A stretch of 64,000 nt of DNA, from NCBI GenBank assembly GCA_910587065.1, contig CAJUMA010000001.1:9346-73345 (forward strand), in the 5' to 3' direction. Below the pieces are notes generated by a model, which saw nothing but the letters and a program-made list of their open reading frames with translations, was not told where the DNA came from and did no database searches. Position numbers and translations under genes: made by a program. This DNA is from an uncultured Bacilli bacterium. GTDB lineage: Bacteria; Bacillota_I; Bacilli_A; RF39; UBA660. This document shows positions 11,407 through 35,281 of this stretch, piece by piece (position 1 is the stretch's first letter; each line of letters begins with the position of its first letter).

Positions 11407-12240
11407 CTAAAAAGATTTTCTATTGACCACATCATAAGTATCACATATCGCAATAAAAGCATTTTGATCAATTATCTTTATTCCTTCTTTTAATTTAAAA
11501 TAATCCTTAGTATCAATAACGGTCAATAATATTTGATTTTTCTTTTTTGTAAAACCACCCTTAACATCTAGGACAGTTAACTCATATTTTAAATCATGAA
11601 TGATATAATGTCTAACTTCTTTCTCTTTACTTGTAATAATGTAAAACATTTTCGAATCGTTTATACCGAACCTTGTTTTGGTAATCATATATTTTGAAAT
11701 AAATATAATCACAGTCGAATAAAGTGTAATTTGATAACCTAATATAAACAATGAAATAGCAAGTAATATGACATCTAATAACCATGAATATATTTTACTA
11801 TGAAACTTTGTAACTTTTCCAAACATTTCTTCAAGAAGAAAAACGACACTTGCTGATAATCCTTGTTTATAAATAAATGAATAGCCAAAGCCTGTAAGAA
11901 ATCCAACAACTATTATAACTAACAAAGTCTCTGGCAACTCAATAACATAAAAAGAAGTTAAAAACGAGAATAAGTAAACAAATATAGGTATTAGAAGTGA
12001 AGGTAACAAATACTCTTTAATTATTTTTTTATCTAAAAATAAAGAAGATAAAAAAATTCCAAGAAGATTTAAAACGAAAATATTTATACCTACATTTATT
12101 CCATTTATATAGTATAAAAGCGTAGCAAAACCATTAATACCAAACGTAAGTAAATTATTTGGTATTATGATAAAATCTATTGCAAAAGCAATAAGAGCAC
12201 AACCAAATATCACATTTAAATATTTAATTATTTTTTTCAT
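11407..12240 (-). CDS. YitT-family membrane protein (DUF2179 C-terminal domain)
   Basis: Five or six TM helices followed by a soluble C-terminal domain ..LTVLDVKGGFTKKKNQILLTVI..AFIAICDTYDV. Its start overlaps the prfB stop by 17 nt. Confidence 0.7.
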   Translation of the reverse strand: MKKIIKYLNVIFGCALIAFAIDFIIIPNNLLTFGINGFATLLYYINGINVGINIFVLNLLGIFLSSLFLDKKIIKEYLLPSLLIPIFVYLFSFLTSFYVIELPETLLVIIVVGFLTGFGYSFIYKQGLSASVVFLLEEMFGKVTKFHSKIYSWLLDVILLAISLFILGYQITLYSTVIIFISKYMITKTRFGINDSKMFYIITSKEKEVRHYIIHDLKYELTVLDVKGGFTKKKNQILLTVIDTKDYFKLKEGIKIIDQNAFIAICDTYDVVNRKSF

Positions 12241-13337
12241 TTAATCCCTTCATTCTTAAAACTGATTCTATAAACGGATAGATATCTCCATCCAAAACTT
12301 TTTGATAATTACTTGTTTCATAATTACTTCTTAAATCTTTTACTAAACTATAAGGTTCTAAGACATAATTTCTAATTTGACTACCAAAATCAATATTGGC
12401 ATTTCCTTTTAAACTATTTATTTCTTTATTACGAGCTTCTACTTCCATTATTTTAAGTTTATTTCTTAATATACTTAAAGCAATCTCTTTATTCTTAAGT
12501 TGACTTCTCTCATTTTGAACAGTTATAACTATACCAGTTGGTATATGCGTAACTCTAACAGCTGAATCTGTTGTATTAACTCCCTGCCCACCATTTCCAC
12601 TACTTCTGTAAACATCAATTCGAATATCACTGTCATTAATAACGACATCTGTTACACTTTCTAACTCTGGAGTAACATTTACTGCTGCAAAAGATGTCTG
12701 TCTTTTACCCGCTGCATTGAAAGGAGATATTCTAACTAACCTATGAACACCTATCTCATTTTTTAAATATCCATAAGCATAATCACCAGTTACATATACC
12801 AAAACACTTTTAATTCCTGCTTCTTCACCTAAAGACTTTTCAACGACATTATATTTAAAACCAAATTTTTCAAAAAACATAGTATACATTCTTAAAAGCA
12901 TATTTGCCCAATCTTGAGCTTCAGTACCACCTGCTCCTGGATGTATTTCTAAATAACAATTATTACAATCAAACTCCCCATTTAAAAGAGTATTTATTTC
13001 ATAATTCGAAATCTTTTCTTTAATCTTAATTAAATCTTTTTCTAATCCTTCAATTAATTCTAAATCATTTTCCATTTTTATTAGTTCAATTAATTCTAAA
13101 CTATTTTTTATTGAGCCAATTATACTATTATATTCATCAATGATTTTACTTAAATTAGCTAGCTCTTTATTAACATTATTTGCATATCCTTGATTGCTCC
13201 AAAAATCAGGTTCGTTAGTAATACTTTCTAACTCTTTTCTCCTCTTTATTTTCGCATCTAAGTCAAAGTGACCTCCCAATAACTTCAATTGTTTTGTTCA
13301 ATTCGTTATAACCATTTTCTAATTCGTTAATATTCAT
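12224..13337 (-). CDS. prfB: peptide chain release factor 2, requires programmed +1 frameshift
   Basis: SPF motif (RISPFNAAGKRQTSFA) and GGQ motif (SGNGGQGVNTTDSAV). ORF0 is ATG 13337 plus 24 codons (MNINELENGYNELNKTIEVIGRSL) ending at an in-frame TGA. The main body continues in the +1 frame. Confidence 0.95.
13262..13277 (-). promoter_or_regulatory. RF2 autoregulatory +1 frameshift site
   Basis: The minus strand reads GGGAGG TCA CTT TGA C. This is an internal SD-like element, a 3-nt spacer, then the CUU UGA C slippery/stop context, the same geometry as E. coli and B. subtilis prfB. Confidence 0.9.
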
Positions 13338-13638
13338 AAGTATCACCCAACAATATTTTATCATGCCACTAAAAAAAGAGAAAGAAAAAATCACTTAAGT
13401 GGTTATCTTCTTTCTAACATTCTAACTCTTTCTTCAAAATATTTATAATATTTATCTTTTTTTAATTAGTCTTTTTGAAATCTATTGATTCACCAATATT
13501 TAACTGAAGTTTAGAAAAAAGTTTATAAGAACCTTTCATTCCAAATGAAACAAGTAAAAACTTACCTAATAAAGCAATCTTTGGTACTCCCAATTTATAT
13601 GAGTTTGTTCACTTTAGCAAGTACTTCTTTATTCATTT

Positions 13639-14235
13639 TTATTTCCTTTCAAATAGACTTTTATCTACTCCACACTTTGGGCACTTAAAATCATTAGGTA
13701 AAGTATCACCATAATAAACATATCCACATATAGTACAAACCCATGCTGTACGACCATCTTCAGTTGTAGCTTTAACAAGTTCATCTTTATGGTTTTGATA
13801 ATAATTATAACTCATTGCTTCTTCATCACGAAACTTATCTGCTTCAATTAGTTTGCCAATGAATAAAGTATGTGTATCATTTTCTATTCTGTCAACTATT
13901 TCGCAAACCATATATCCTAAGCTATTTTTTATAATTGGAACTCCGGCGTCTTCAAACATATCAATATTTTCATATTTATTAATATCACGCATTGAGTTAA
14001 GTCCAAACGTTTTTATTAAGTTTCCATCTTCTGACATACCTAAAATAGAAAGAGCAAACTTGTCATTTTTATGAAGTAATTCATTAGTATAATTGCTTTT
14101 CATAACTGCAACACTAATTAAAGGATTATCTCCGCCACTTATTTGAGAAACTGCATCAACAATGCAACCGCCGCCGCTAGTTGTAAGTACATACAATCCT
14201 TGAGTAATACTTCTTGTTATTTTTTTATTTTTCAC
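13639..14235 (-). CDS. flavin reductase-like domain fused to a C-terminal rubredoxin
   Basis: Flavin_Reduct-like N-terminus ([21 protein letters not shown]) plus the rubredoxin knuckles [10 protein letters not shown]...FKCPKCG. Confidence 0.75.
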
Positions 14236-14238
14236 AAA

Positions 14239-14706
14239 TCATCTTCCTTTTTTTATATTATTTGTTTCTAACTTTTTATCAAGCATTTGTAAAAATTTTA
14301 AATATAAATCTTCATTTGGACAATTATATTCATCATAACTCATAAAGACTTTAGATTCTAAACTTAATATTGCAACTTTTTCTTGCCTAATAATATCCTC
14401 ATTATCTAAACACCAATCTCTTTGCCAGTCTGTAATAACTTCAGGCATAAATATTGTATTAGTCTCATCAATATTAAATACTAAATACCCTAGATATGAC
14501 AAGTATTTTGCCATTACATATGCTGGCGGATATTTATATCCATCAATTTCTAAACCATGATCTTTCATATATTTTCCTAAGGGACCTGAATGTCTTTCTT
14601 CTTCCCCATACTCATCAAATCCCAAAGTTTTATTTAAAATTTCTTCATCGGTCTTTGGTGGAATAACAATAGCTCTTCTAACAACAGTTATTTCTAATTC
14701 TTCCAT
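14239..14706 (-). CDS. hypothetical protein (155 aa)
   Basis: ORF only. It lies 3 nt upstream of the flavin reductase gene. Confidence 0.5.
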   Translation of the reverse strand: MEELEITVVRRAIVIPPKTDEEILNKTLGFDEYGEEERHSGPLGKYMKDHGLEIDGYKYPPAYVMAKYLSYLGYLVFNIDETNTIFMPEVITDWQRDWCLDNEDIIRQEKVAILSLESKVFMSYDEYNCPNEDLYLKFLQMLDKKLETNNIKKGR

Positions 14707-14736
14707 ACTACCACCTTAAGTTTATTATACTACATA

Positions 14737-15570
14737 TCAAGAATAAAAAGAATCTATTGACAAAGAATTTGTTAAGTTTTCTTTCTGTACTTCTACAACA
14801 CCTTCTTCATCAACATTCATAATCCACCTTACTAATCTAATTGATGCATGCTCTAATTCTAACGCTGTTATACCATTAGGATGTACACAAGATCCATCAT
14901 TAAAATATTTGTGTTCAAAATTCTCTGGTAATATTGGACGATGCGTATGACCAGCAATTATAATCTTCTTATTTTTGCCCGTCCACTTAACTAATTTTTT
15001 TTCAACATTTTTTGATAACTTATAATTTTTAGCTGCACTCGTTGGATCATTAATTCCAAAACCTTCAACATTCTTCCATACATAACGAACTAAAAAACGA
15101 GATAAACGCCAAAACGTACTATTTAATAAATCCACCTGGTGACCATGTATTAAGAATAATTCTTTTCCATCATAGTTTAAAACTACTGATTCGTAAATAT
15201 CCAAGTCTTTTAAAATATCACCATAATAATTATTCTTTCTTAATTTTTCAATATCATGATTTCCCGAAAGCATTATTAATCTTTTTTCTTTATTAAAATT
15301 TTCAAGTAACTTATATGTTGATTTGTGCCCCTCAATTATACTCTTTATATCCTTTACTTCCCAGAGTTCATCTCCATCTCCTAACTCAATATAAGTAAAA
15401 TTATTTTTTAAATAATATTTTAAAGCACCATTATAGATAGTTTCATTTTTTAAGAAATTATCTTCATTATTACCTTCACCCCTATGACAATCACTCATAA
15501 TAACGAGTTTCGTTTTTCTATCTATATTTATTCTTCTAGAGGATAAAAATAATTTATCAATTCTTTTCAT
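14737..15570 (-). CDS. calcineurin-like metallophosphoesterase
   Basis: Motifs VIMSDCHRG, GDGDELWE, SGNHD, IHGHQ and AGHTHRP. Confidence 0.8.
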   Translation of the reverse strand: MKRIDKLFLSSRRINIDRKTKLVIMSDCHRGEGNNEDNFLKNETIYNGALKYYLKNNFTYIELGDGDELWEVKDIKSIIEGHKSTYKLLENFNKEKRLIMLSGNHDIEKLRKNNYYGDILKDLDIYESVVLNYDGKELFLIHGHQVDLLNSTFWRLSRFLVRYVWKNVEGFGINDPTSAAKNYKLSKNVEKKLVKWTGKNKKIIIAGHTHRPILPENFEHKYFNDGSCVHPNGITALELEHASIRLVRWIMNVDEEGVVEVQKENLTNSLSIDSFYS

Positions 15571-23895: not shown

Positions 23896-25386
23896 TTATT
23901 TTTTCTTATACCATTTTTTTGTATAACTTAAAACATTTATATTTCCTAAAACAAAAGCTACAACATATATTGGTGAATAACAGTACAAATATCTAGCTCT
24001 TGCTTCAAATAAGGTTAAAAATAAGGTTATACCAATTAAAGTAAGCATTACTACTAGTTCCTTTTTAGAGTTTGCTTTTTTTACACAAAATGGAATATAA
24101 AATAGTAAAGTTAACCAAAACCATTGAGCAATCAACAAATAAACTTTATAAAAAGATCCATCATGAGTGAAAATATTATTAATAAATTTCTTAATGGGAT
24201 GTGACTGCTTTTTTACATTTAAGAAAAATGCTCCTTCTTTACCCCAAGCAAATGAACCATCATTATAATTAACTAAAGTTTTCTTTGAAAAAAAGTCAAG
24301 ATGTTCTTTTAAAGATCTTTCTGATAATCTCTTTTTTATTTTATCAATATTTTGATTCATACCATATTTAATTGAATCATCTACATCACTGCCATTAAAT
24401 ATACCTTGTGTTTCTTCATTTAATCCCATCGCGATAAAATGTACTAGTTTAAACTCAACAACATTTGGTACCTGATAATATTCAACATAAACTCTTGCAG
24501 CAGCATTTATACTAAATACAACTAAAAATCCTAAAAGTGAAAGTGAGATGTTCTTTAAAACAACTTTCAAATTCCATTTTCTAAAATTAAGAATTCTTCT
24601 TAAATTAGTAAGTAACTCAACAATAATTATAGCAAGTAAAACAATTATAACTGTAGGTTTAATATAATAACCAAATAGCGATAATAAACATATAAAAAAA
24701 TAATCATAACAATCTTTTTTATCTTTCGTATAAATATACAAAACAAGAATTGGAAATATTAATGCAAATGTATCAGAATATACAACAAGTATCCAAGGAC
24801 TTAACACAACAAGCGGAATTAAAAATATATAAGAACTTAAAGCATACCTATTATTATGGGTTAAATTCTTAACTGTTAAAGAAGTAAAAATTGCACTTAT
24901 ATTAACGAACAAAGAATTAAAGAAAAGAAAGATAAAATTAGAGTTTCCAAAAAATGGTATATTTCTAAATAGTATAAGTATAAACGTTAACATTGTATTG
25001 TTAGGATACCTTGTCATATATTCCATGTCATTAATAACTTTATAATTAAGGAAATGTTCAACAGTTCTCAATAAATGTCCAGCATCCCAAGTAGGAGTGA
25101 AATAACCATAAACTTCTACAAACATCTGAACAAAAAATAAGACTAAAGAAAGTATTGCAAGTACTATATAGTATTTTTTATTTGAAAAATCTTTTATATT
25201 TTTAAAAAAGAAAAATATAAAAAAAATTATAATTATAAAAATAATAGAAAAAATATTACTTAACAAATAGTTTCTTTGATTAATGTAATCTATATTCCCA
25301 AAAAAGAACAAGAGTATAAGAATATAACTAAACATAACAATAAATATTACTGGTATCGTTTTTTGTAAAAATTTCATAAATCCCAA
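23896..25386 (-). CDS. polytopic membrane protein, GT-C-like (ArnT/PMT-type) glycosyltransferase candidate
   Basis: More than 10 TM helices, aromatic-rich, with a soluble loop near the C-terminus. The call rests on architecture only. Confidence 0.4.
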   Translation of the reverse strand: MGFMKFLQKTIPVIFIVMFSYILILLFFFGNIDYINQRNYLLSNIFSIIFIIIIFFIFFFFKNIKDFSNKKYYIVLAILSLVLFFVQMFVEVYGYFTPTWDAGHLLRTVEHFLNYKVINDMEYMTRYPNNTMLTFILILFRNIPFFGNSNFIFLFFNSLFVNISAIFTSLTVKNLTHNNRYALSSYIFLIPLVVLSPWILVVYSDTFALIFPILVLYIYTKDKKDCYDYFFICLLSLFGYYIKPTVIIVLLAIIIVELLTNLRRILNFRKWNLKVVLKNISLSLLGFLVVFSINAAARVYVEYYQVPNVVEFKLVHFIAMGLNEETQGIFNGSDVDDSIKYGMNQNIDKIKKRLSERSLKEHLDFFSKKTLVNYNDGSFAWGKEGAFFLNVKKQSHPIKKFINNIFTHDGSFYKVYLLIAQWFWLTLLFYIPFCVKKANSKKELVVMLTLIGITLFLTLFEARARYLYCYSPIYVVAFVLGNINVLSYTKKWYKKK

Positions 25387-25478
25387 TCCTTAATAAACCG
25401 CACTTTAAAGTAATTATACATAATAAAGAAAATATATACAATAGAAAAAGATGCTATTACATATAACATCTTTAGTAA

Positions 25479-25790
25479 CTATTTCTTTAAAGGCAAAGAC
25501 TTACAAGTGTCTAATATAATTTTTTTAAGTAATTCTTTATTATCTAAATCATCTATTAAATACATAGGTTTTGCTCCACTATAAGGTATTTTTCTAGAAA
25601 GATTATATAAATCATTACTAGAAACTATTTTAACAAGTACCCTATTATCATAAATACCACCAAATAATACATCCTTGTAATAAAGCAAGTATTCACCCAT
25701 CATTGATTTACAAGTAATGCCATCCATAATTTCTAATTGATTTAAAACATAATCTTTATAATCTTTTGTCGTAGACATTAATTGCACCAC
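25479..25790 (-). CDS. TfoX N-terminal domain protein
   Basis: 103 aa with CKSMMGEYLLYYKDVLFGGIYDNRVLVK, typical of TfoX_N. Confidence 0.6.
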   Translation of the reverse strand: MVQLMSTTKDYKDYVLNQLEIMDGITCKSMMGEYLLYYKDVLFGGIYDNRVLVKIVSSNDLYNLSRKIPYSGAKPMYLIDDLDNKELLKKIILDTCKSLPLKK

Positions 25791-26548: not shown

Positions 26549-26825
26549 ATTTGAAATAATTCTATCACAATAAATATCTGTTTTACATTACCTACTCATA
26601 AATTTCCCACTTTATTTTATTTAGCAATAATTTCTATTGTTACTTCATCTCTTTTCAATAGAAATTACCTCACTTTCTTGAAATTTAAAAGGATGTTCAC
26701 ATATTTTTTATGTTTACATCCTTTATTTTTAGGCATTGAGCCACAATTTTAAATTATTTACAAGCAAATCCCTATTTGTTAACATTTTTTTAATTTACAA
26801 AACTATCGCAAACCCTTTATTTATC

Positions 26826-26885
26826 TCACTTTCCGCAGCAATTTTTGTACTTTTTGCCCGAACCACATGTTCTACCAAATCCAGT
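26826..26885 (-). pseudogene. orphan duplicate of the secA 3' end (SecA zinc-finger tail)
   Basis: The minus strand reads [18 protein letters not shown], compared with the live SecA tail [20 protein letters not shown] at 32783. There is no upstream ORF. Similarity is at the protein level and partly at the nucleotide level. Confidence 0.65.
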
Positions 26886-27021
26886 ATTTATAGTATTTAT
26901 GGTATTACTGGAATTATTGATATTTCAGGGAAAAAGTGGTTCCGAAGTATCGAATATTTATGGTATTTATAGTACTATGATTACTATAAATATTTCATCC
27001 AATGGGAACAAAATGGGAACA
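26883..27021. repeat. clusters of short direct repeats at the island end (candidate recombinase arm sites)
   Basis: 9-mers (A/G)GTATTTAT at 26883, 26892 and 26962, with variants at 26901, 26953 and 26971. ATGGGAACA occurs at 27002 and 27013, and the same 9-mer recurs at 32713 next to the integrase. Confidence 0.5.
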
Positions 27022-27129: not shown

Positions 27130-30100
27130 CTAAATATTTTCTTGTTTAGTTTTTAATAATTCTTTTATAGGAGGATTTTTAATATCTCTTGGGATTATTG
27201 GAATATCATCTTTTAAAATAGCTGCCGCTTCTAAATCTCCTTTTCCAATTTCGTATGCATGCTTTATATTGACTTTTTTCAACACTATTTCATAATCCCA
27301 TAAAGGAATAATTTCTTCATCTGTGGCAATCATTGGTAAAAGTGTAATTTTAGGATTATTTCCTTTTTTAATTATTTCTTCTAAAATCTTTATATTTTTA
27401 TCATCTTTACAATTCATTTGATGAAAACGCGTTGCATTATTAATAAGAATATTCTTAGTAATACCTTTAGGAACTTTAACTTTACCTGTAATCATAACTC
27501 TATAGTCATAAATATCAGATTTGCTAATTCCTTTTATAAAAGATAGTATTATCTTCCCTTCTTTATCTTCTTTAGATGCATAGTCCATCAAATCTTGAAA
27601 AACTCTTTTTGCACCTTCTTCATTTTCGAATACAAATCCTATTTTTATAAATTTATTATTAATTAGGTCTCCTAAATACACAACACCTTTCCATTTAGCC
27701 ACATCCCAATGATTACATTTAATCAATCCTGAAGAATAAATATTACTATGTGATACGTTCTCAAATGGATTGTTTTCTGGAACACCATATTCAATATTCT
27801 TTTTATCATCAAAAGGATCTACAGTTTCCTCTTTAGCATTGGTTATTTCAATATCTGAATACCATTCTTTAGTTCTACTAATACTATTGACAGGAATATC
27901 TTTTTCTTCTTCAATACCAAATATTTTATTAAGATTATATAAACTATTTGTGTGATTTAAACTTCTTTCAAAAGCCTTTTCATCTTCAAATATTTCCTTA
28001 AAAGTTTTTTCATAGTCTTTATAAATAAAATTAACTGCTAATATGTTAGCTAATAATTTAAACAGCATATCTGTAATTATTTGATGATTTTCTATAGAAA
28101 TATAATACATATTAAATGAATCCAAAGTAATGATATATGTATCTATTCCATCAAATGAATAGTTAACATCAAAGGTTCCACTATCTTTTTCTTGCAATTG
28201 AATAATAATATCTCCACGCATATATGTATTATGATTATGGATTGTTGCAAATGTATTCTCTAATAAAGCCATTATAAATTCAGCAAATTTATGCATTAAA
28301 TCTGTAGAAGTATAATATATTTTCAATTTATTTCCACTAAGCATTGAATTTATTGCACTTTCTTTTCCATTACAATAAATAGGGATAGGAAGTCTTTGAT
28401 TTAATGATGCTTTATAAAAATCCTCTATTTGTTTATCAACTTGATTTTTATCTCCATTACATTCTTCCAATAACTCATCATCATACGCTCCTAATACATA
28501 TTTGGCCATAATTTTTGAAACAATTAAACCATTATTAGAACACTCGAATATTATTTCATCCAGCATTTTAAAATCTTCAAATTTTGTTCTTAATATTTGG
28601 GACGAGATAAGAGCATCTCTTTGTAAAAGAAATTCTTCCTCTTCTTCATGTTTAAATATTTCATTTTTATCAATCAAAATACTATAAAATATATTTTTGA
28701 TGTTAATCCATTGGATAGCTTGCTCTATATTACCAAATTGTATTTCTAAATCAATAATTCTATTTAATATTTTTAACGAAAATGTTTCTAAATTACCTTC
28801 TTTAAAATACAAATCTATAAATAATGTAACTGCAGCTATATAATAATTTTTGGCAGCATATAATAAACCAATAGATTCAAAATTTGCACCAATATTTATA
28901 TATGCTTCTACTAATTTGCCATTAGTCTCTTCCTTATACAATAAAGTTAAACATTTTCCTAAAATATTTATTGCTTCATAATTTCTGCCAGATGATGAAA
29001 GCAATTTAGACTTTTTCAAATACATATCAGCACGTTGAATTTCGCCTTTTCTACTTGTCAACTTATCAATTATTAATTCATAAAGTTCATCAAACTTTTT
29101 ATTATCATTATACACAGGTAAAAGGTTTTCAATCATTTTGGCTAATTCAATAAAATCATATTCTTTAAACTTTGTTGCTTCTTCTGCAATAATACTTAAT
29201 TCTTCACATTGCTTATCAATATTTTCTTCTAATATAATTTTAATAATGCAAATTCTTGTTTTAGCTTTTAATTGTGTAACAAAACTTTGAGATTTTTCTT
29301 TTTCACTTAGAAGATTCAATAGTATTTTTGTTTTAACTTTTACTGCTTCTTTATCCCTATTTTTTCTAGTATATTCTATAGTCCATAAATTAGCTAAATT
29401 CATTATTTCGTCTATGCTTTTATCTTTAATGACTTCCGCTTGATATTCTTCATAATACTTTTCAAAATTTGTACCATCATTTAACCACCAATTATAATAC
29501 CAGGCTAGGTCATATAAAATCTCCCGTTGTGCTACAATATTCTTTTTTGTTTTCGCAAATCTTAAAGCGCGTTCAAATTTTCCTACAACAACAACTTCAT
29601 CTTCTTCTAAATCTCTACTTATAATGGCAGACTCAATAGAAAGATCAATAACTTCTTGATTAATCTTTTTTTTTGAAGAATAGTCTTGTAATTTCTTTTC
29701 TATTTCTTCTACACGTCTTTGTTTTTTTAAATCATTTGGACCAATTTCTTTTTCCTTAATTGGTTGAGTAATATTAATTAATTTTAATAGATCCAAATTT
29801 TTTTCATGTAGAGCTTTATTTAATATCCAAGTTTTATCTAAAATAGTTATATCTAATCCTGTTTCCCTACTTTTATTATCTTGATATTCTAATCTTTTAT
29901 CATTTTTAATCGATTGATTGGTTATAAAAAAGATTTTAGTATATCCTCTTTTTGTATCTATAATTTTTTTTATATCTCCATCACATTTTGATTTCCAACT
30001 TTTTCTTAGGCTAATTGCAAACGCCCACCTGTCATTTTTTCCATTTAAGCCATGCCACCAAAATTCTTGAATATCCTTTGCTACTGGATAATTTTCTGTA

Positions 30101-30333
30101 TCAACCTTACCATCTCCTCCACCAGCTGGACCAGTTTCTTCTATTAAATTAGGACAGACTTCTCTTTCCAATAATTTTCTTATGAATTCTTCAAAATCAA
30201 AATGTTTATTTTGTTCTGATAGTCTTGATAAATGAAAATCTAATATTTCTCTAGGGCACTCAACTTTATCCACAATCTTTGAATCCGAAAATTGATTAGG
30301 ATGTAATTTTTTTAATAAATCTCTTGGTTCCAT
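27130..30333 (-). CDS. large orphan protein (1067 aa): PD-(D/E)xK/Mrr-like N-terminus, TPR-like helical middle, unassigned C-terminal half
   Basis: GGAGG RBS. N-terminus FEEFIRKLLE..ETGPAGGGDGKVD..RWAFAISLRK..KIFFITNQ. Helical repeats at roughly residues 430-560 (NYEAINILGKCLTLLYKE, LVEAYINIGANFESIGLLYAAKNYYIAA). No canonical P-loop. Confidence 0.75.
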   Translation of the reverse strand: MEPRDLLKKLHPNQFSDSKIVDKVECPREILDFHLSRLSEQNKHFDFEEFIRKLLEREVCPNLIEETGPAGGGDGKVDTENYPVAKDIQEFWWHGLNGKNDRWAFAISLRKSWKSKCDGDIKKIIDTKRGYTKIFFITNQSIKNDKRLEYQDNKSRETGLDITILDKTWILNKALHEKNLDLLKLINITQPIKEKEIGPNDLKKQRRVEEIEKKLQDYSSKKKINQEVIDLSIESAIISRDLEEDEVVVVGKFERALRFAKTKKNIVAQREILYDLAWYYNWWLNDGTNFEKYYEEYQAEVIKDKSIDEIMNLANLWTIEYTRKNRDKEAVKVKTKILLNLLSEKEKSQSFVTQLKAKTRICIIKIILEENIDKQCEELSIIAEEATKFKEYDFIELAKMIENLLPVYNDNKKFDELYELIIDKLTSRKGEIQRADMYLKKSKLLSSSGRNYEAINILGKCLTLLYKEETNGKLVEAYINIGANFESIGLLYAAKNYYIAAVTLFIDLYFKEGNLETFSLKILNRIIDLEIQFGNIEQAIQWINIKNIFYSILIDKNEIFKHEEEEEFLLQRDALISSQILRTKFEDFKMLDEIIFECSNNGLIVSKIMAKYVLGAYDDELLEECNGDKNQVDKQIEDFYKASLNQRLPIPIYCNGKESAINSMLSGNKLKIYYTSTDLMHKFAEFIMALLENTFATIHNHNTYMRGDIIIQLQEKDSGTFDVNYSFDGIDTYIITLDSFNMYYISIENHQIITDMLFKLLANILAVNFIYKDYEKTFKEIFEDEKAFERSLNHTNSLYNLNKIFGIEEEKDIPVNSISRTKEWYSDIEITNAKEETVDPFDDKKNIEYGVPENNPFENVSHSNIYSSGLIKCNHWDVAKWKGVVYLGDLINNKFIKIGFVFENEEGAKRVFQDLMDYASKEDKEGKIILSFIKGISKSDIYDYRVMITGKVKVPKGITKNILINNATRFHQMNCKDDKNIKILEEIIKKGNNPKITLLPMIATDEEIIPLWDYEIVLKKVNIKHAYEIGKGDLEAAAILKDDIPIIPRDIKNPPIKELLKTKQENI

Positions 30334-30344
30334 AATACCTCCAA

Positions 30345-31271
30345 TTATAACAATTTTAAATATTTCTTTAACATTTCTATTTCCAACTTAGTTATTAATT
30401 TAACAAAATCTGTGTAATCACCAGTTGTATGAGCTTTATCTAATGCTTCATAATATTCTAATCTATCTTCCTTTTTTATTATTACTGGATTAAACCCATG
30501 ATTCATTAAATCTAAATTCATAAGTAATCTTGAAGTTCTACCATTACCATCTACAAATGGATGAATTTTAACTAATTCCCCATGTAATAAAGCTGCCTGA
30601 ATAATTGGATGGAAATTATTCCAGTTTTCATAATTTAAAACTAATTTTTCCATTAGTTCTGGAACTTTCAAATAATCAGGTGGAATATGAGTAGCACCCT
30701 TTATAGTAACATTTTCTCTTCTATATCTCCCTGCATTTTCATCATCAATATCTTTTAAAACTAATTGATGAATACCTTTGATATTCCACTCACTAATTGG
30801 ATTGTTCTCTTTTAGCAAATCATTTAAATATAAAATTGCCTTTTCATGATTAATAGCCTCTAAATGCTCTTTTATTGATTTTCCTCCAACTGTAATTCCC
30901 TCTAATACTACTTGTGTTTCTCTAAGTGTCAATGTATTACCTTCTATACCATTACTGTTATATGTCCATTCAAGATTAATCGATTCTTCTAATGATTTTA
31001 AAGTTTCTTTCGGTATAGGTCTTTTATTATCTAATTCTCTCTTTATTTGGTCGACTTCATTAAAATAATTATCCTCTAAATCAATAATAAATTCTGTAGA
31101 ATCTGGTTTAATAACTCGTTTATCCACAGGTTTTATTGCATCAACTGGAATATTCCAACTGTTTCCGTTTTTAACAGCTCCTTCAATTCTACCATCTTGT
31201 AATAGTTGTCTTATCCTTCTTTCACTAATATTCCATTTTTTTACAGCTTCTTTAGTAGTCATAAATTCCAT
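30345..31271 (-). CDS. Fic (Fido) domain protein with N-terminal excisionase/MerR-like HTH
   Basis: HTH MTTKEAVKKWNISERRIRQLLQDGRIEGA, and an intact Fic motif HPFVDGNGRTSRLLMN. Its stop lies 11 nt before the 1067-aa ORF. Confidence 0.85.
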   Translation of the reverse strand: MEFMTTKEAVKKWNISERRIRQLLQDGRIEGAVKNGNSWNIPVDAIKPVDKRVIKPDSTEFIIDLEDNYFNEVDQIKRELDNKRPIPKETLKSLEESINLEWTYNSNGIEGNTLTLRETQVVLEGITVGGKSIKEHLEAINHEKAILYLNDLLKENNPISEWNIKGIHQLVLKDIDDENAGRYRRENVTIKGATHIPPDYLKVPELMEKLVLNYENWNNFHPIIQAALLHGELVKIHPFVDGNGRTSRLLMNLDLMNHGFNPVIIKKEDRLEYYEALDKAHTTGDYTDFVKLITKLEIEMLKKYLKLL

Positions 31272-31332
31272 AACTCTTCACCTCTATATATCATTATACC
31301 GTTGTCGGTAGTTTAAGTCAATTATATAAACT

Positions 31333-32595
31333 CTAGTTTTTAAATTTTATAATTTCATTTATAGTTTCTGATTTTACTGTTTCTTCAAACTTTTCACTTG
31401 CTCCTTTAAGTGTTACTTCTGTTGAGGAAATATAATAATTCTCCGTTGCTTCTATTTTGCTATGACCCAAAATATCCGCAACATCTCTAATTTCTACACC
31501 ATTTCTTAAACTTTTTGTTGCGTAACTTCCCCTTAAATCATAAAATCTGCAATTTTTTATTCCTAGGTCTGTATGAATTACTTTGTATGGATATTTTACA
31601 ATGTCAGTTCCGCTAAAAACTCCATTATCTTTTCTAAATACAAAATCTAACGTCTCTAATGATTTAGATCTTCTAGTAGTTTCAACTACCCTATATTCTA
31701 CTATTTTTCCATACTTATTTTTAACATCTTCTAAATGATAGTATTTATAATTTTTACCATAATCCTTCTTATAATTATCTTGTTTACTTTTATAATTTTT
31801 TAATGCGGTTAATAAAGTATCACAAATATATACTTTTCTTACTCCATTTATTGTTTTTGTCGTACCCAAAAACCATTTGCCTTTTTCATCTTTTTCCTTA
31901 CTATATACATTATGTTCAATACTGATAATTCTTTTTTCAAGATCAACTTTATCCCACAGGGCACAAACTTCTCCTGTTCTCATACCAGTGAAACACGCAG
32001 TTAAAAACGCACAAGTAAAGGCATAATTATTTTTAAATCTATTTAAAATGATATCAATTTCATCTTGAGTATAAATATGCCTTATGGTCTTTTTTTTTAA
32101 TTGTGCAAGATGGGGCAAACTTACAGTTATTGCTGGATTATAATTAATAAATCCAAAGATATCAGTTGCTACTCTAAATGAACATTTTATTACTTTTACA
32201 AAATTTCTTAAATATCCATAAGAGTAATCATATCTTCTACATACATCTATTAAATATTTGTTTAACTGATAACTTGTAATTGCATTAAGTCTATAATGAC
32301 CTAAATAAATCTTTAAATACTTATTAACAATAACAGAATACTCTTCTATTGTTCTGTATTTTAAATTTACTTTACAGTAATTATCTAGCCAATAATCTAA
32401 ATAATCTCCATAAGACATAAAGGCTTCTATCCTATATCCACCATTTTGATATTCTTCATAAGCCTTTTGCCCTGCAATAAATGCAGCATTTTTTGTTTTA
32501 AACCCAGATTTTGAAATATACTTTCTCTTGCCATTTACTCTTGCTGTTTCAAATCGATACTGATACACCTTTCCCCTTTTTTGAATACTAATCAT
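31333..32595 (-). CDS. tyrosine site-specific recombinase (phage integrase family)
   Basis: Has an N-terminal SAM-like/AP2-like region and a catalytic domain. Catalytic motifs are FTGMRTGEVCAL, HDLRGSYATK and ILGHSKIEATENYY. ATG 32595, 9 nt after AGGGAG, is preferred over the track start at 32655. Confidence 0.9.
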   Translation of the reverse strand: MISIQKRGKVYQYRFETARVNGKRKYISKSGFKTKNAAFIAGQKAYEEYQNGGYRIEAFMSYGDYLDYWLDNYCKVNLKYRTIEEYSVIVNKYLKIYLGHYRLNAITSYQLNKYLIDVCRRYDYSYGYLRNFVKVIKCSFRVATDIFGFINYNPAITVSLPHLAQLKKKTIRHIYTQDEIDIILNRFKNNYAFTCAFLTACFTGMRTGEVCALWDKVDLEKRIISIEHNVYSKEKDEKGKWFLGTTKTINGVRKVYICDTLLTALKNYKSKQDNYKKDYGKNYKYYHLEDVKNKYGKIVEYRVVETTRRSKSLETLDFVFRKDNGVFSGTDIVKYPYKVIHTDLGIKNCRFYDLRGSYATKSLRNGVEIRDVADILGHSKIEATENYYISSTEVTLKGASEKFEETVKSETINEIIKFKN

Positions 32596-32631
32596 TCTTA
32601 TCATCTCCCTTTCATTTTCGATTAGTTTTAC

Positions 32632-32677
32632 TAAAACAAAAAGGAATGTTATCATTTTCTCTATGTTAACATTCCTT
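32632..32677 (-). terminator. secA terminator-like hairpin (or att-associated inverted repeat)
   Basis: Perfect 10-bp inverted repeat AAGGAATGTT/AACATTCCTT (32641-32650 and 32668-32677) with a 17-nt loop. On the minus strand it is followed by TTTGTTTT. Confidence 0.5.
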
Positions 32678-32782: not shown

Positions 32783-35281
32783 TCATTTCCCGCAACATTG
32801 CTTATACTTTTTCCCGCTACCACAAGGACATTTGTCATTACGACCAACCTTACTCTCGTTCTTAACAGTTGTCTTAACTTTTTCCTTACCATCACCTGCG
32901 TTGCCTTCTAATTGTCTTGCAGCAAAGTTTTGTTTTATCTCCATTTTAAGTAAAAACGTTGCAATTGAAGCATCAATATTATCTTGCATTGCTTCAAACA
33001 TTTCATATCCCTCTAAAGCATATGCTTGTAAAGGGTTATTTTGTCCATAACCACGAAGCCCTATACCTTCTCTTAATTGATCCATATCAGCTATATGTTT
33101 AACCCATGCTTCATCAATTACACGAAGCGATATATGTTTTTCAAAATCAGTTACAATTTCTTTTGGAACAATCTCAATTTTTTCCTCATAATCTTTTATA
33201 ACTCTTTCACTTAAGATTGCAAAAACTTCATCTTCTTTTTTACCATATAAATCTTCAGGTCTAATTTTTTCTTTCTTAAGTAAATTATGATTAACAGCAT
33301 CACATATTCCATCCATATCAGAATTAGTTAAATAACCCTCAGGAGCAATATGTGCTTCAATCAACTCATCTATATAATCATTTAAAATATCAATTATAAT
33401 TTGATGAATATCCTCTGAATCTAAAATTTCATTTCTTCTTTCATAAATAATCTTTCTTTGTTCAGATACAATATTGTCATAATCAAGTAAGTTCTTACGC
33501 ATATCATAGTTATTGCCTTCAACCTTCTTTTGAGCAGATTCAACAGACTTAGTAAACATTTTACTTCTAACTTGTTCCATATCATCTAATCCTAAAGATT
33601 GAACCATATTCTTAACTCTATCAGCTCCGAATCTATGCATTAACTCATCTTCAAAAGAAATAAAGAATTGAGAATAACCAGGGTCGCCTTGACGACCTGC
33701 ACGACCACGTAACTGATTATCGATACGGCGAGATTCATGTCTTTCAGTACCAATTACACAAAGACCACCTAATTCAGAAACTCCATCGCCAAGTTTAATA
33801 TCAGTTCCACGCCCCGCCATATTTGTAGCTATTGTAACGGCTCCTTTTTCACCAGCCTTAGCAATAATTTCTGCTTCTCTTGCATGATTCTTGGCATTTA
33901 AAACTTCATGTTTAATTCCTACTTTATCTAACATTTTAGATAATCTCTCATTATTTTCAACTGAAATTGTACCCACTAATATTGGTTGTCCTGTTTCATG
34001 AACTTGTTTAATAAAGTCAACAATGTTTTTAAACTTAGCTCCTTCAGTGGCATACATTATATCCGACATATCTTTTCTAATGCATGGCTTATTTGTAGGA
34101 ATTTGAATGACATACATATTATAAATATCTCTAAATTCTTCTTCTTCTGTTTTAGCAGTACCTGTCATACCAGAAATTTTCGCATACATTCTAAACAAAT
34201 TTTGAAAAGTAATTGTTGCCATTGTACGAGTTTCTTCATTTATTTGAACTCCCTCTTTAGCTTCAATTGCTTGATGTAAGCCATCGCTAAATTGTCTTCC
34301 TTGCATCAAACGTCCTGTAAAAGGGTCAACAATAATTATCTTTTGTTCCCCATCAACAACATAATCAACATCTAATTTCATTCCGTAATTAGCTTTTAAT
34401 GCTTGGTTTATATGATGCACTAAAACGGTATTATCTTCATCATATAAATTTTTTAATTTAAAGAATTTTTCAACCTTTTTAGAACCATCTTCTGTTAACA
34501 TAACAGATTTAGTCTTAGGATCAACCGTATAATCATCTTCTTCAACTAATGATTTAACAGCTTTATCAGCTTCACGATAAAGATTAGTTGTATTAACTTT
34601 ACCACCAGAGATTATCAGTGGAGTACGAGCTTCATCAATTAAGATTGAATCGACTTCATCTAGAATTACATAATTTAATTTTCTTAGTACTCTATCTTCT
34701 TTTCTGACAACCATGTTATCTCTTAAATAATCAAAACCAACTTCATTATTAGTCGAATAAGTTATATCACAATTATAAACTTCTCTTTTCTCTTCAGGAC
34801 TCATCTCATGTAAATTAACCCCTACACTTAAGCCTAAGAATTCATAAATTGGTCTCATCCAATCAGCATTACGTTGAGTTAAATACTCATTTACTGTAAC
34901 AACGTGAACGCCTTTACCTGTTAAAGCATTTAAATAAGCTGGCAAAATAGTAGTTAAGGTTTTTCCTTCACCAGTCTTTAATTCAGCAATATTACCAAAA
35001 TGCAATGCTAAACCACCAAGTAATTGAACATAGTAAGGTTTTTCACCAATTTGTCTATAAGCAACTTCTCTAGCAGCAGCAAAAGCTGTAACAATAATAT
35101 CTTCATCATTAACTGTTTTTCCATTTTCCAATTGAGCCTTTAATTTGTCTGTTGTCGATGCTAAGTCCTCATCACTCATATTCGTATACTTATCATCTAA
35201 TGCGACAATTTTATCAGCAATCTTTTTAAATTTTTTTAATTCTTTATATTCAGTATCTACTAAACTTTTTAATAATCCCAT
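32783..35281 (-). CDS. secA: preprotein translocase ATPase SecA
   Basis: 832 aa. Walker A MKTGEGKTL-type (ELKTGEGKTLT), DEAD-like box DEVDSILIDEARTPLIISG, and the C-terminal Zn finger CPCGSGKKYKQCCGK. Confidence 0.97.
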   Translation of the reverse strand: MGLLKSLVDTEYKELKKFKKIADKIVALDDKYTNMSDEDLASTTDKLKAQLENGKTVNDEDIIVTAFAAAREVAYRQIGEKPYYVQLLGGLALHFGNIAELKTGEGKTLTTILPAYLNALTGKGVHVVTVNEYLTQRNADWMRPIYEFLGLSVGVNLHEMSPEEKREVYNCDITYSTNNEVGFDYLRDNMVVRKEDRVLRKLNYVILDEVDSILIDEARTPLIISGGKVNTTNLYREADKAVKSLVEEDDYTVDPKTKSVMLTEDGSKKVEKFFKLKNLYDEDNTVLVHHINQALKANYGMKLDVDYVVDGEQKIIIVDPFTGRLMQGRQFSDGLHQAIEAKEGVQINEETRTMATITFQNLFRMYAKISGMTGTAKTEEEEFRDIYNMYVIQIPTNKPCIRKDMSDIMYATEGAKFKNIVDFIKQVHETGQPILVGTISVENNERLSKMLDKVGIKHEVLNAKNHAREAEIIAKAGEKGAVTIATNMAGRGTDIKLGDGVSELGGLCVIGTERHESRRIDNQLRGRAGRQGDPGYSQFFISFEDELMHRFGADRVKNMVQSLGLDDMEQVRSKMFTKSVESAQKKVEGNNYDMRKNLLDYDNIVSEQRKIIYERRNEILDSEDIHQIIIDILNDYIDELIEAHIAPEGYLTNSDMDGICDAVNHNLLKKEKIRPEDLYGKKEDEVFAILSERVIKDYEEKIEIVPKEIVTDFEKHISLRVIDEAWVKHIADMDQLREGIGLRGYGQNNPLQAYALEGYEMFEAMQDNIDASIATFLLKMEIKQNFAARQLEGNAGDGKEKVKTTVKNESKVGRNDKCPCGSGKKYKQCCGK

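Follow-up and report, generated by a model that had tools for sequence, protein, structure and literature searches.

A candidate STAND-less sensor–nuclease protein family of bacterial immunity, represented on a secA-associated island of an uncultured Bacilli bacterium

Nuclease domains of the Mrr type are typically found in modification-dependent restriction enzymes. An Mrr-like PD-(D/E)xK domain is also the N-terminal effector of Avs4 (EcAvs4, 8dgf), in which it shares one polypeptide with a STAND NTPase and a large, TPR-type sensor. Two recently described systems do without the STAND module: Upx, in which a sensor is joined to a divergent PD-(D/E)xK nuclease, with terminase-triggered, nuclease-dependent toxicity (Gao 2020; Evans et al. 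2026, PMC13601566), and Dsr1, which shares the sensor of Avs7 (Lee et al. 2026, PMC13581612). Here we report a computational analysis of a gene encoding a 1067-residue protein in a 64,000-nucleotide (nt) stretch of DNA from an uncultured Bacilli bacterium (GenBank assembly GCA_910587065.1, contig CAJUMA010000001.1, positions 9,346 to 73,345; hereafter referred to as the window). An earlier reading of the sequence alone (the original prediction) had singled out this gene as a candidate defence effector or sensor with a nuclease-like N terminus, a TPR-like middle and no NTPase. Our analysis divides the protein into an N-terminal domain with a predicted PD-(D/E)xK fold, a TPR-like solenoid and two C-terminal α/β domains, and suggests that it is, on balance, probably a stand-alone, single-gene sensor–nuclease immune protein with an Avs-like layout that lacks the STAND module.

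The gene occupies positions 27130 to 30333 on the minus strand, which the original prediction had left unstated, and encodes 1067 residues plus a stop codon, with its ATG start at 30331–30333. The open reading frame list, the translation and full-length homologues at 25–92% identity indicate that it is complete, and it is, as had been claimed, the longest open reading frame in the window, the runners-up encoding 862 and 832 residues. A full-length AlphaFold2 model based on an 86-sequence alignment has a mean predicted local distance difference test (pLDDT) score of 87.8 and a predicted template modelling (pTM) score of 0.78. Searches against Pfam, NCBIfam, PADLOC 2.0 and PDB sequences with the whole protein, its separate domains and 33 family members yielded no family assignment, and the PADLOC 2.0 search recommended in the original prediction returned no known-system match for the protein. 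Its description as an orphan is therefore correct only insofar as it belongs to no named family; it is not isolated, as hundreds of full-length homologues exist.

The N-terminal domain (residues 1 to 196; 29746–30333, minus strand) is predicted to adopt a PD-(D/E)xK fold of the Mrr/Avs4-effector type, as indicated by AlphaFold2 models, Foldseek and hhalign comparisons and the highest conservation in the protein. Its modelled secondary structure comprises a helix (residues 44–58), three strands (63–65, 79–81 and 103–108), a second helix (113–126) and a further strand (133–138), an order that follows the α-β-β-β-α-β core of restriction endonucleases. When the domain was modelled alone (pLDDT 76), its best Foldseek match in the PDB was the nuclease effector of Avs4 (8dgf; E 3e-3, probability 1.0, TMq 0.46), with further matches to EcoT38I, Mus81, XPF, FokI, McrC, Cap4, EndoMS and RPB5, the last of which has a PD-(D/E)xK-like fold; a search of the viral library BFVD returned a phage restriction endonuclease, RPB5 and Vsr. 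The resemblance to Avs4 extends to sequence profiles. At locus L094, a homologue has a NACHT protein as its neighbour, residues 1–225 of which match positions 1–231 of the PADLOC Avs4 model (E 5e-34), and hhalign aligned our N-domain profile with a 14-sequence profile of this Avs4-like N-domain over 131 columns (E 5.5e-5, probability 66%); the 14-sequence profile was required, as the single-sequence comparison was not significant (E 0.06). By eye, the two sequences have in common FEE in helix 1, ETYP in strand 2, [QS]AK in strand 3 and IFT[NH]Q in strand 4, of which only FE and ETYP are clearly paired in the hhalign alignment. The Pfam Mrr_cat profile (PF04471) did not reach significance in 35 of 36 N-domains, and gave one weak match (E 0.025). 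The AlphaFold and Foldseek check proposed for the nuclease-like N terminus thus points to a PD-(D/E)xK fold.

Conservation across the 86 sequences is concentrated in this domain. The motifs on which the original prediction relied are all present in the translation (FEEFIRKLLE at residues 46–55, ETGPAGGGDGKVD at 66–78, RWAFAISLRK at 102–111 and KIFFITNQ at 133–140), and residues E48, G72, G73, D74, K76, D78, S108, W113, K116, D120, Y131 and D166 are invariant, with E80 kept in 80 sequences. Column entropy is lowest at residues 61–80, and the GGGDGKVD loop (residues 71 to 78; 30100–30123, minus strand) shows the strongest conservation in the family, with D74 and D78 as putative metal-binding and catalytic acids alongside K76. 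In strand 3, the invariant S108 is followed in 71 of 86 sequences by lysine or arginine at position 110, by eye the counterpart of the Avs4-type Q-A-K. The SLRK stretch had been proposed as catalytic; its S108 is invariant, but R110 and K111 vary, and the invariant residues are rather E48, D74, K76, D78, K116 and D120. From the predicted fold and these residues, we infer nuclease activity. Ahead of the nuclease core lies an RPxxFSDS motif (residues 11 to 18; 30280–30303, minus strand), which is family specific and absent from Avs4-type N-domains; its D17 is invariant and P12, F15, S16 and S18 nearly so, and it could be a catalytic, regulatory or docking element.

The nuclease-like domain is followed by an all-helical, TPR-like solenoid (residues 197 to 645; 28399–29745, minus strand), a putative scaffold for sensing a ligand or protein. 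Foldseek searches with the full model matched only TPR proteins, namely TSK, SPINDLY (SPY), LGN, OGT and one STAND–TPR protein, with E values of 5e-4 to 1e-2 and low TM scores. The Pfam TPR_8 profile matched residues 435–464 below threshold (E 1e-3, 19.5 bits against a cutoff of 25.7), and the protein profile matched HOP TPR2A with an E value of 0.009. The model and these matches suggest a TPR-like fold with degenerate repeats. Helical repeats of TPR type had been predicted at residues ~430–560; their character holds but their extent was underestimated, as the whole of residues ~199–644 is helical repeat.

Two α/β domains separated by a linker complete the protein. The C1 domain (residues 646 to 805; 27919–28398, minus strand) is modelled with a pLDDT of ~90, its α/β structure covering residues 658–805, and has conserved G667, E692, T697 and R790. 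The linker (residues 806 to 870; 27724–27918, minus strand) is mostly unstructured, with a lower pLDDT and the lowest identity of all segments. The C2 domain (residues 871 to 1067; 27133–27723, minus strand), defined by alignments and the AlphaFold2 model, in which its α/β structure covers residues 873–1067, contains invariant W876, W881, F912 and Y944, a nearly invariant R969 and a conserved DDxPIIP...APxLExL tail. Neither C1 nor C2 (residues 646–1067) has a Pfam match or a PDB sequence match, in agreement with the earlier statement that the C-terminal part has no recognizable motif, here the last ~420 residues; the full-length Foldseek searches (PDB and BFVD), which were dominated by TPR proteins, say nothing about these domains. 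Internal duplication was considered and rejected, the N-domain and C1, the N-domain and C2, and C1 and C2 being unrelated by hhalign.

An NTPase module is absent from this arrangement. The window protein lacks a Walker A motif ([AG]x4GK[ST]) and a Pfam match to NACHT, NB-ARC or AAA, its AlphaFold2 model contains no β-sheet NTPase module, and a Walker A-type motif occurs in only 6 of 86 homologues, at non-homologous positions; the absence of a P-loop, as originally read, was borne out. The protein resembles Avs4 in joining an N-terminal Mrr-like PD-(D/E)xK effector to a large, putative TPR-type sensor in one polypeptide, and resembles Avs proteins in its island and mobile-element lifestyle, but differs from them in lacking the STAND NTPase, with neither P-loop nor α/β NTPase module, and in having two extra C-terminal α/β domains. 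Moreover, none of the 33 family members matched a PADLOC Avs model at E ≤ 1, and the Avs3 and Avs4 sensors were not among the top 50 Foldseek matches of the full-length model. As there is no STAND NTPase, NTP-driven tetramerization cannot be the activation switch, which would leave ligand-induced relief of autoinhibition or ligand-templated self-association. In the mechanism that we propose, the solenoid together with C1 and C2 (residues ~197–1067) would sense an invader ligand, most likely a phage protein; ligand binding would relieve the autoinhibition of the N-terminal PD-(D/E)xK domain or drive its self-association; and the activated domain would cut DNA and halt the infection, probably sacrificing the cell. 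Among distant members, identity is 50% in the N-domain, 33% in the TPR region, 26% in C1, 36% in C2 and 23% in the linker, a gradient that, judged from the alignments, would be expected if a constant effector were coupled to a sensor that evolves faster.

The proposed mode of action follows the logic of Upx or Dsr1, the two STAND-less systems. Like the protein described here, Upx is a single large protein that combines an unannotated sensor with a PD-(D/E)xK nuclease and has a broad, patchy distribution; however, the order of its parts is reversed, with the sensor N-terminal and the ExK nuclease C-terminal (PMC13601566), and its sensor is β-rich, with β-augmentation, rather than a TPR solenoid. 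In Dsr1 and other STAND-less carriers of the Avs7 sensor, the effector is likewise N-terminal and is followed immediately by a large helical sensor, an arrangement that works as a phage-protein receptor without an NTPase (PMC13581612); the effector there is SIR2 or HEPN rather than a nuclease of the present type. Neither system was matched in our PADLOC searches, for which the presence of a Upx model in the library was unchecked. Restriction enzymes of the Mrr/MspJI type share the PD-(D/E)xK core, a DGx[IV]D-type loop and a [QS]xK strand, but the present family has no modification reader, and its ~870-residue TPR and α/β extension is foreign to those enzymes. Because the protein has no STAND module and no Upx, Dsr1 or Mrr_cat profile match, it should not be filed in the Avs, Upx, Dsr1 or Mrr families.

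The family is widespread and patchily distributed. A search of 5.8 billion proteins gave 230 matches; dozens of full-length homologues (~1050–1120 residues) at 25–31% identity come from Bacteroidota, Acidobacteriota, Thermodesulfobacteriota and other phyla, those at 57–92% identity form a clade of gut Clostridia and Bacilli, and every named homologue is annotated as 'hypothetical protein'. Relatives are present in 497 of 185,579 GTDB species representatives (~0.27%), scattered over more than ten phyla, with lineages including Bacillota, Bacteroidota, Chloroflexota, Planctomycetota, Verrucomicrobiota, Acidobacteriota, Cyanobacteria, Pseudomonadota, Gemmatimonadota, Chlamydiota and the candidate phyla radiation. 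An N-domain profile searched against 1.84 billion representatives recovered 489, 991 and 1455 clusters at E ≤ 1e-30, 1e-10 and 1e-3, respectively, which puts the family at roughly 500–1000 clusters at 50% identity; in the best 150 matches, the domain is always N-terminal, in proteins of ~1050–1140 residues or fragments. Homologues reside on 13 plasmids, 10 of them conjugative or mobilizable, and in 24 of 5426 complete Escherichia coli genomes (0.44%). At the one E. coli locus inspected, in strain GZ04-0086, the 1083-residue 'hypothetical protein' WP_135805009.1 (NZ_CP042336.1, 4171481–4174732; positions 11971–15222 of locus L101) is encoded in a lambdoid prophage, at its tail-fibre end and next to a pseudogene for an integrase. 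In the literature, we found no name for the nuclease–TPR architecture and no mention of WP_135805009.1.

Clustering of neighbouring genes at ~85 non-redundant loci revealed no neighbour family or partner gene conserved throughout. Serine recombinases and tyrosine integrases recur, each at 9 loci, whereas the tightly linked upstream and downstream genes are heterogeneous, and many neighbours belong to defence systems. These include Wadjet JetABCD; NACHT and DAC-family genes beside Tn7 genes; Eco57I/AccI restriction–modification with TacAT; an AAA_15/21 ATPase with a serine recombinase; LmuC (Lamassu), MkoC (Mokosh; E 1e-294), type IIG restriction–modification, PDC-S28 and DpdF; an Avs4-like protein, encoded at one locus two genes from the homologue; MADS and AriA-, DrmMI- and PglX-like matches; DUF1156/DUF499, Eco57I with SNF2-PLD, and an AAA_15–UvrD fusion; and IetAS-like genes. 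On plasmids, AbiEii and NACHT genes accompany the homologue in Nostoc, and an ATPase and S8 peptidase pair does so in Burkholderia. The scattered spread, the plasmids, the prophage and these neighbours amount to a distribution typical of defence genes, and the census fits the earlier nomination as a defence candidate qualitatively. Tandem paralogy was ruled out as an explanation of ~1100-residue neighbours at L038 and L061, which are unrelated defence proteins (DUF1156/DUF499, Eco57I and SNF2-PLD). At L001 (11476–13870) and L023, from Eubacterium/Longicatena, a gene encoding a helix-turn-helix (HTH) and DprA-like protein and then a phosphoribosyltransferase-domain gene lie directly downstream of the homologue, a pair that we take to resemble a described DprA–phosphoribosyltransferase defence pair. 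At the RhuM-linked loci of the secA hotspot (L010, 11275–12870), the gene after the homologue encodes a 531-residue RNase_T-type exonuclease with a C-terminal Cro/C1 HTH, possibly further defence cargo.

On the minus strand of the window, secA (32783–35281) is followed, in this order, by a tyrosine integrase gene, an HTH–Fic gene and the 1067-residue gene. The 440-residue integrase (31333–32655, minus strand) has Phage_integrase, Phage_int_SAM_3 and Arm-DNA-bind_4 matches in Pfam and adjoins the live 3′ end of secA, which encodes the SEC-C motif (32783–32846, minus strand) and marks the near boundary, on the attL side. The far boundary, on the attR side, is a remnant of the secA 3′ end (26826–26869, minus strand; encoding ...CGSGKKYKNCCGK and a stop) ~260 nt downstream of the 1067-residue gene. 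The remnant and the live end are identical at 31 of 42 nt. This att duplication, missed in a repeat search, was revealed by comparison with the relative at L025, whose secA end and downstream spacer align with positions 26582–26869 of the window at 87.6% identity over 290 nt. The duplicated secA 3′ end therefore delimits the integrase, Fic and 1067-residue genes as a ~5.9-kb integrative island, which integrated into the 3′ end of secA and supplied that end anew; the claim that the gene is island-borne is thereby supported. The related genomes of L010 and L025 use the same secA-proximal hotspot. Between the stop of the 1067-residue gene and the secA remnant, clustered direct repeats of the ATAAATAC[C/T]ATAAATA type (26885–26978) may be arm-type integrase-binding sites of the island. 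A distant, 1217-residue homologue (P0116) ends in ~110 residues with a SEC-C-type zinc motif (CYCGSGKKLRQCH) that match PADLOC E2 models; this is noteworthy because the window island sits at the SEC-C-coding end of secA, and the extension could be a read-through or fusion product from a similar integration site. Just outside the island (23896–25790, minus strand) are genes for a 496-residue protein like the XrtG-associated glycosyltransferase (TIGR03766; E 9e-41, well below the cutoff) and a 103-residue open reading frame with a weak TfoX_N match.

The Fic protein (308 residues; 30345–31271, minus strand) combines an N-terminal, excisionase-like HTH_17 domain with a Fic domain (Pfam E 4e-24), and has an intact HPFVDGNGRTSR motif, which fits HxFx(D/E)GNGRxxR, and a class II-like SNGIEG inhibitory-helix motif. 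It matches the PADLOC single-gene models SoFic (E 1e-35) and PDC-S04 (E 9e-37), but because it scores only 34.9 bits against the cutoff of 550 of the NCBIfam SoFic equivalog, it is a Fic-family protein rather than a SoFic orthologue; the gene may itself serve in defence or encode a toxin. Its TAA stop (30345–30347) is followed by 11 nt (ttGGAGGtatt) and the ATG of the 1067-residue gene, so that the ribosome-binding site GGAGG (30338–30342, minus strand), 4 nt ahead of the ATG, and the 11-nt distance are both as originally described. The best sigma-70-like promoter match of the region, TTGACT-17-TATAAT (31293–31321, minus strand; 11 of 12 consensus positions, the overall count of such sites being not above chance in this AT-rich DNA), immediately precedes Fic. 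This site could drive a Fic and nuclease–TPR operon, and its position makes co-transcription of the two genes plausible.

This junction underlies the proposal that Fic and the giant protein form a two-gene module, in which Fic (or RhuM) would be an obligate partner, with one protein regulating or neutralizing the other, or with the giant protein as the sensor and Fic as a second effector. The tight gap with its GGAGG, the promoter-like site found only upstream of Fic and an island cargo of just these two genes favour such a module, as does the recurrence of a toxin-like gene at the same position: the Fic junction is kept in the 92% identical relative L019, and RhuM is encoded immediately upstream, with gaps of 5–32 nt, at five other loci in Clostridia, covering at least two chromosomal settings, of which one is again beside secA. 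Fic/Doc and RhuM have been described as interchangeable, position-equivalent toxin-like riders in defence operons (PMC3710099). However, L001/L023 and L025, from the close clade, have neither gene; outside the Clostridia/Bacilli clade, Fic occurs within four genes on either side at 2 of ~75 loci, never adjacent, RhuM is absent, and the upstream genes are unrelated (HerA, PLD, transposase, resolvase, FGE-sulfatase and phosphoesterase). Fic and RhuM are not detectably homologous, BLASTP giving no match, and the window Fic alone matches models of single-gene systems. A common 3′ end of the Fic and RhuM genes ahead of the giant gene was also sought, and only AT-rich noise was found. As a general two-gene system the proposal thus fails, Fic being the upstream gene only in the window and L019; we consider an obligate module unlikely, and regard Fic, or RhuM in sister lineages, as exchangeable co-cargo. 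The mobile setting could itself suggest that the protein serves its element, as an addiction or exclusion factor or a nuclease for competition between elements, with no role against lytic phages. The three-gene integrase island, the conjugative or mobilizable plasmids, the prophage end and the recombinases alongside at 18 of ~85 loci agree with this, but defence cargo typically shows these features too, classical defence systems surround many chromosomal loci that have no mobility genes nearby, and there is no conserved small, antitoxin-like partner, which makes such service quite improbable.

A role in nucleic-acid sensing, as a type IV-like or structure-specific restriction enzyme whose C-terminal domains read modified or unusual phage DNA, would accord with the usual context of Mrr-type domains, with EcoT38I, FokI and McrC among the Foldseek matches, and with the many homologues that adjoin restriction–modification genes; in C2, the aromatic W876, W881, F912 and Y944 with R969 could form a base-binding pocket. 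Nonetheless, Pfam and PDB profiles detected no SRA, EVE, YTH, winged-helix or other DNA-reader domain in residues 646–1067, the matched structures use a TPR solenoid like this 450-residue one as a scaffold for protein binding, and the nuclease finds its closest structural and profile match in the effector of a protein-sensing Avs, so we judge this alternative rather unlikely. Several observations weigh against a protein-sensing immune nuclease more generally. The nuclease fold has moderate support from Foldseek and hhalign (E ~1e-3 to 5e-5, with an hhalign probability of 66%), the catalytic loop (residues 67–89) is modelled uncertainly (pLDDT <50), and the classical (D/E)xK lysine is variable, position 110 being lysine or arginine in 71 of 86 sequences, so that the active site would be of a variant kind, relying on the invariant K76 or K116 instead. 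C1 and C2 may have a DNA-binding or enzymatic role. The PADLOC census lacks a clean control, genes ~8 kb away also matching defence models; these distant matches are consistent with large islands, without proving them, and because the distance control failed, the enrichment in defence genes is qualitative. At least one locus (L008) looks housekeeping, among ordinary genes, and no phenotype has been described for any family member. The variable lysine and the ordinary locus would also suit a housekeeping protein or an inactive scaffold with a catalytically dead nuclease-like domain. This is very improbable, as the family occurs at frequencies of only ~0.27% among species representatives and 0.44% among E. 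coli genomes, is patchy across phyla and is carried on mobile elements, and seven invariant N-domain residues, six of them charged, argue for an active site.

We therefore retain the stand-alone, STAND-less sensor–nuclease as the preferred reading. A broader proposal, which we advance tentatively and hold to be somewhat short of probable, is that the family represents STAND-independent pattern-recognition nucleases, in which an Avs4-type effector is wired to a TPR and double α/β sensor new to immunity and operates free of NTP hydrolysis, teamed in Clostridia with an exchangeable Fic or RhuM as a second arm. Given the recent STAND-less precedents of Upx and Dsr1, the architecture itself is no conceptual surprise. 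If the preferred reading is correct, the family would extend the single-protein immune receptors known from bacteria by a sizeable branch that has so far lacked annotation, and would provide a natural 'minus-NTPase' counterpart of Avs4, in which the activation of a PD-(D/E)xK effector without the STAND oligomerization motor can be tested. The E. coli prophage copy in its native host and the minimal three-gene island in a gut Bacillota genome offer practical systems, and C1 and C2 may constitute a new ligand-recognition module.

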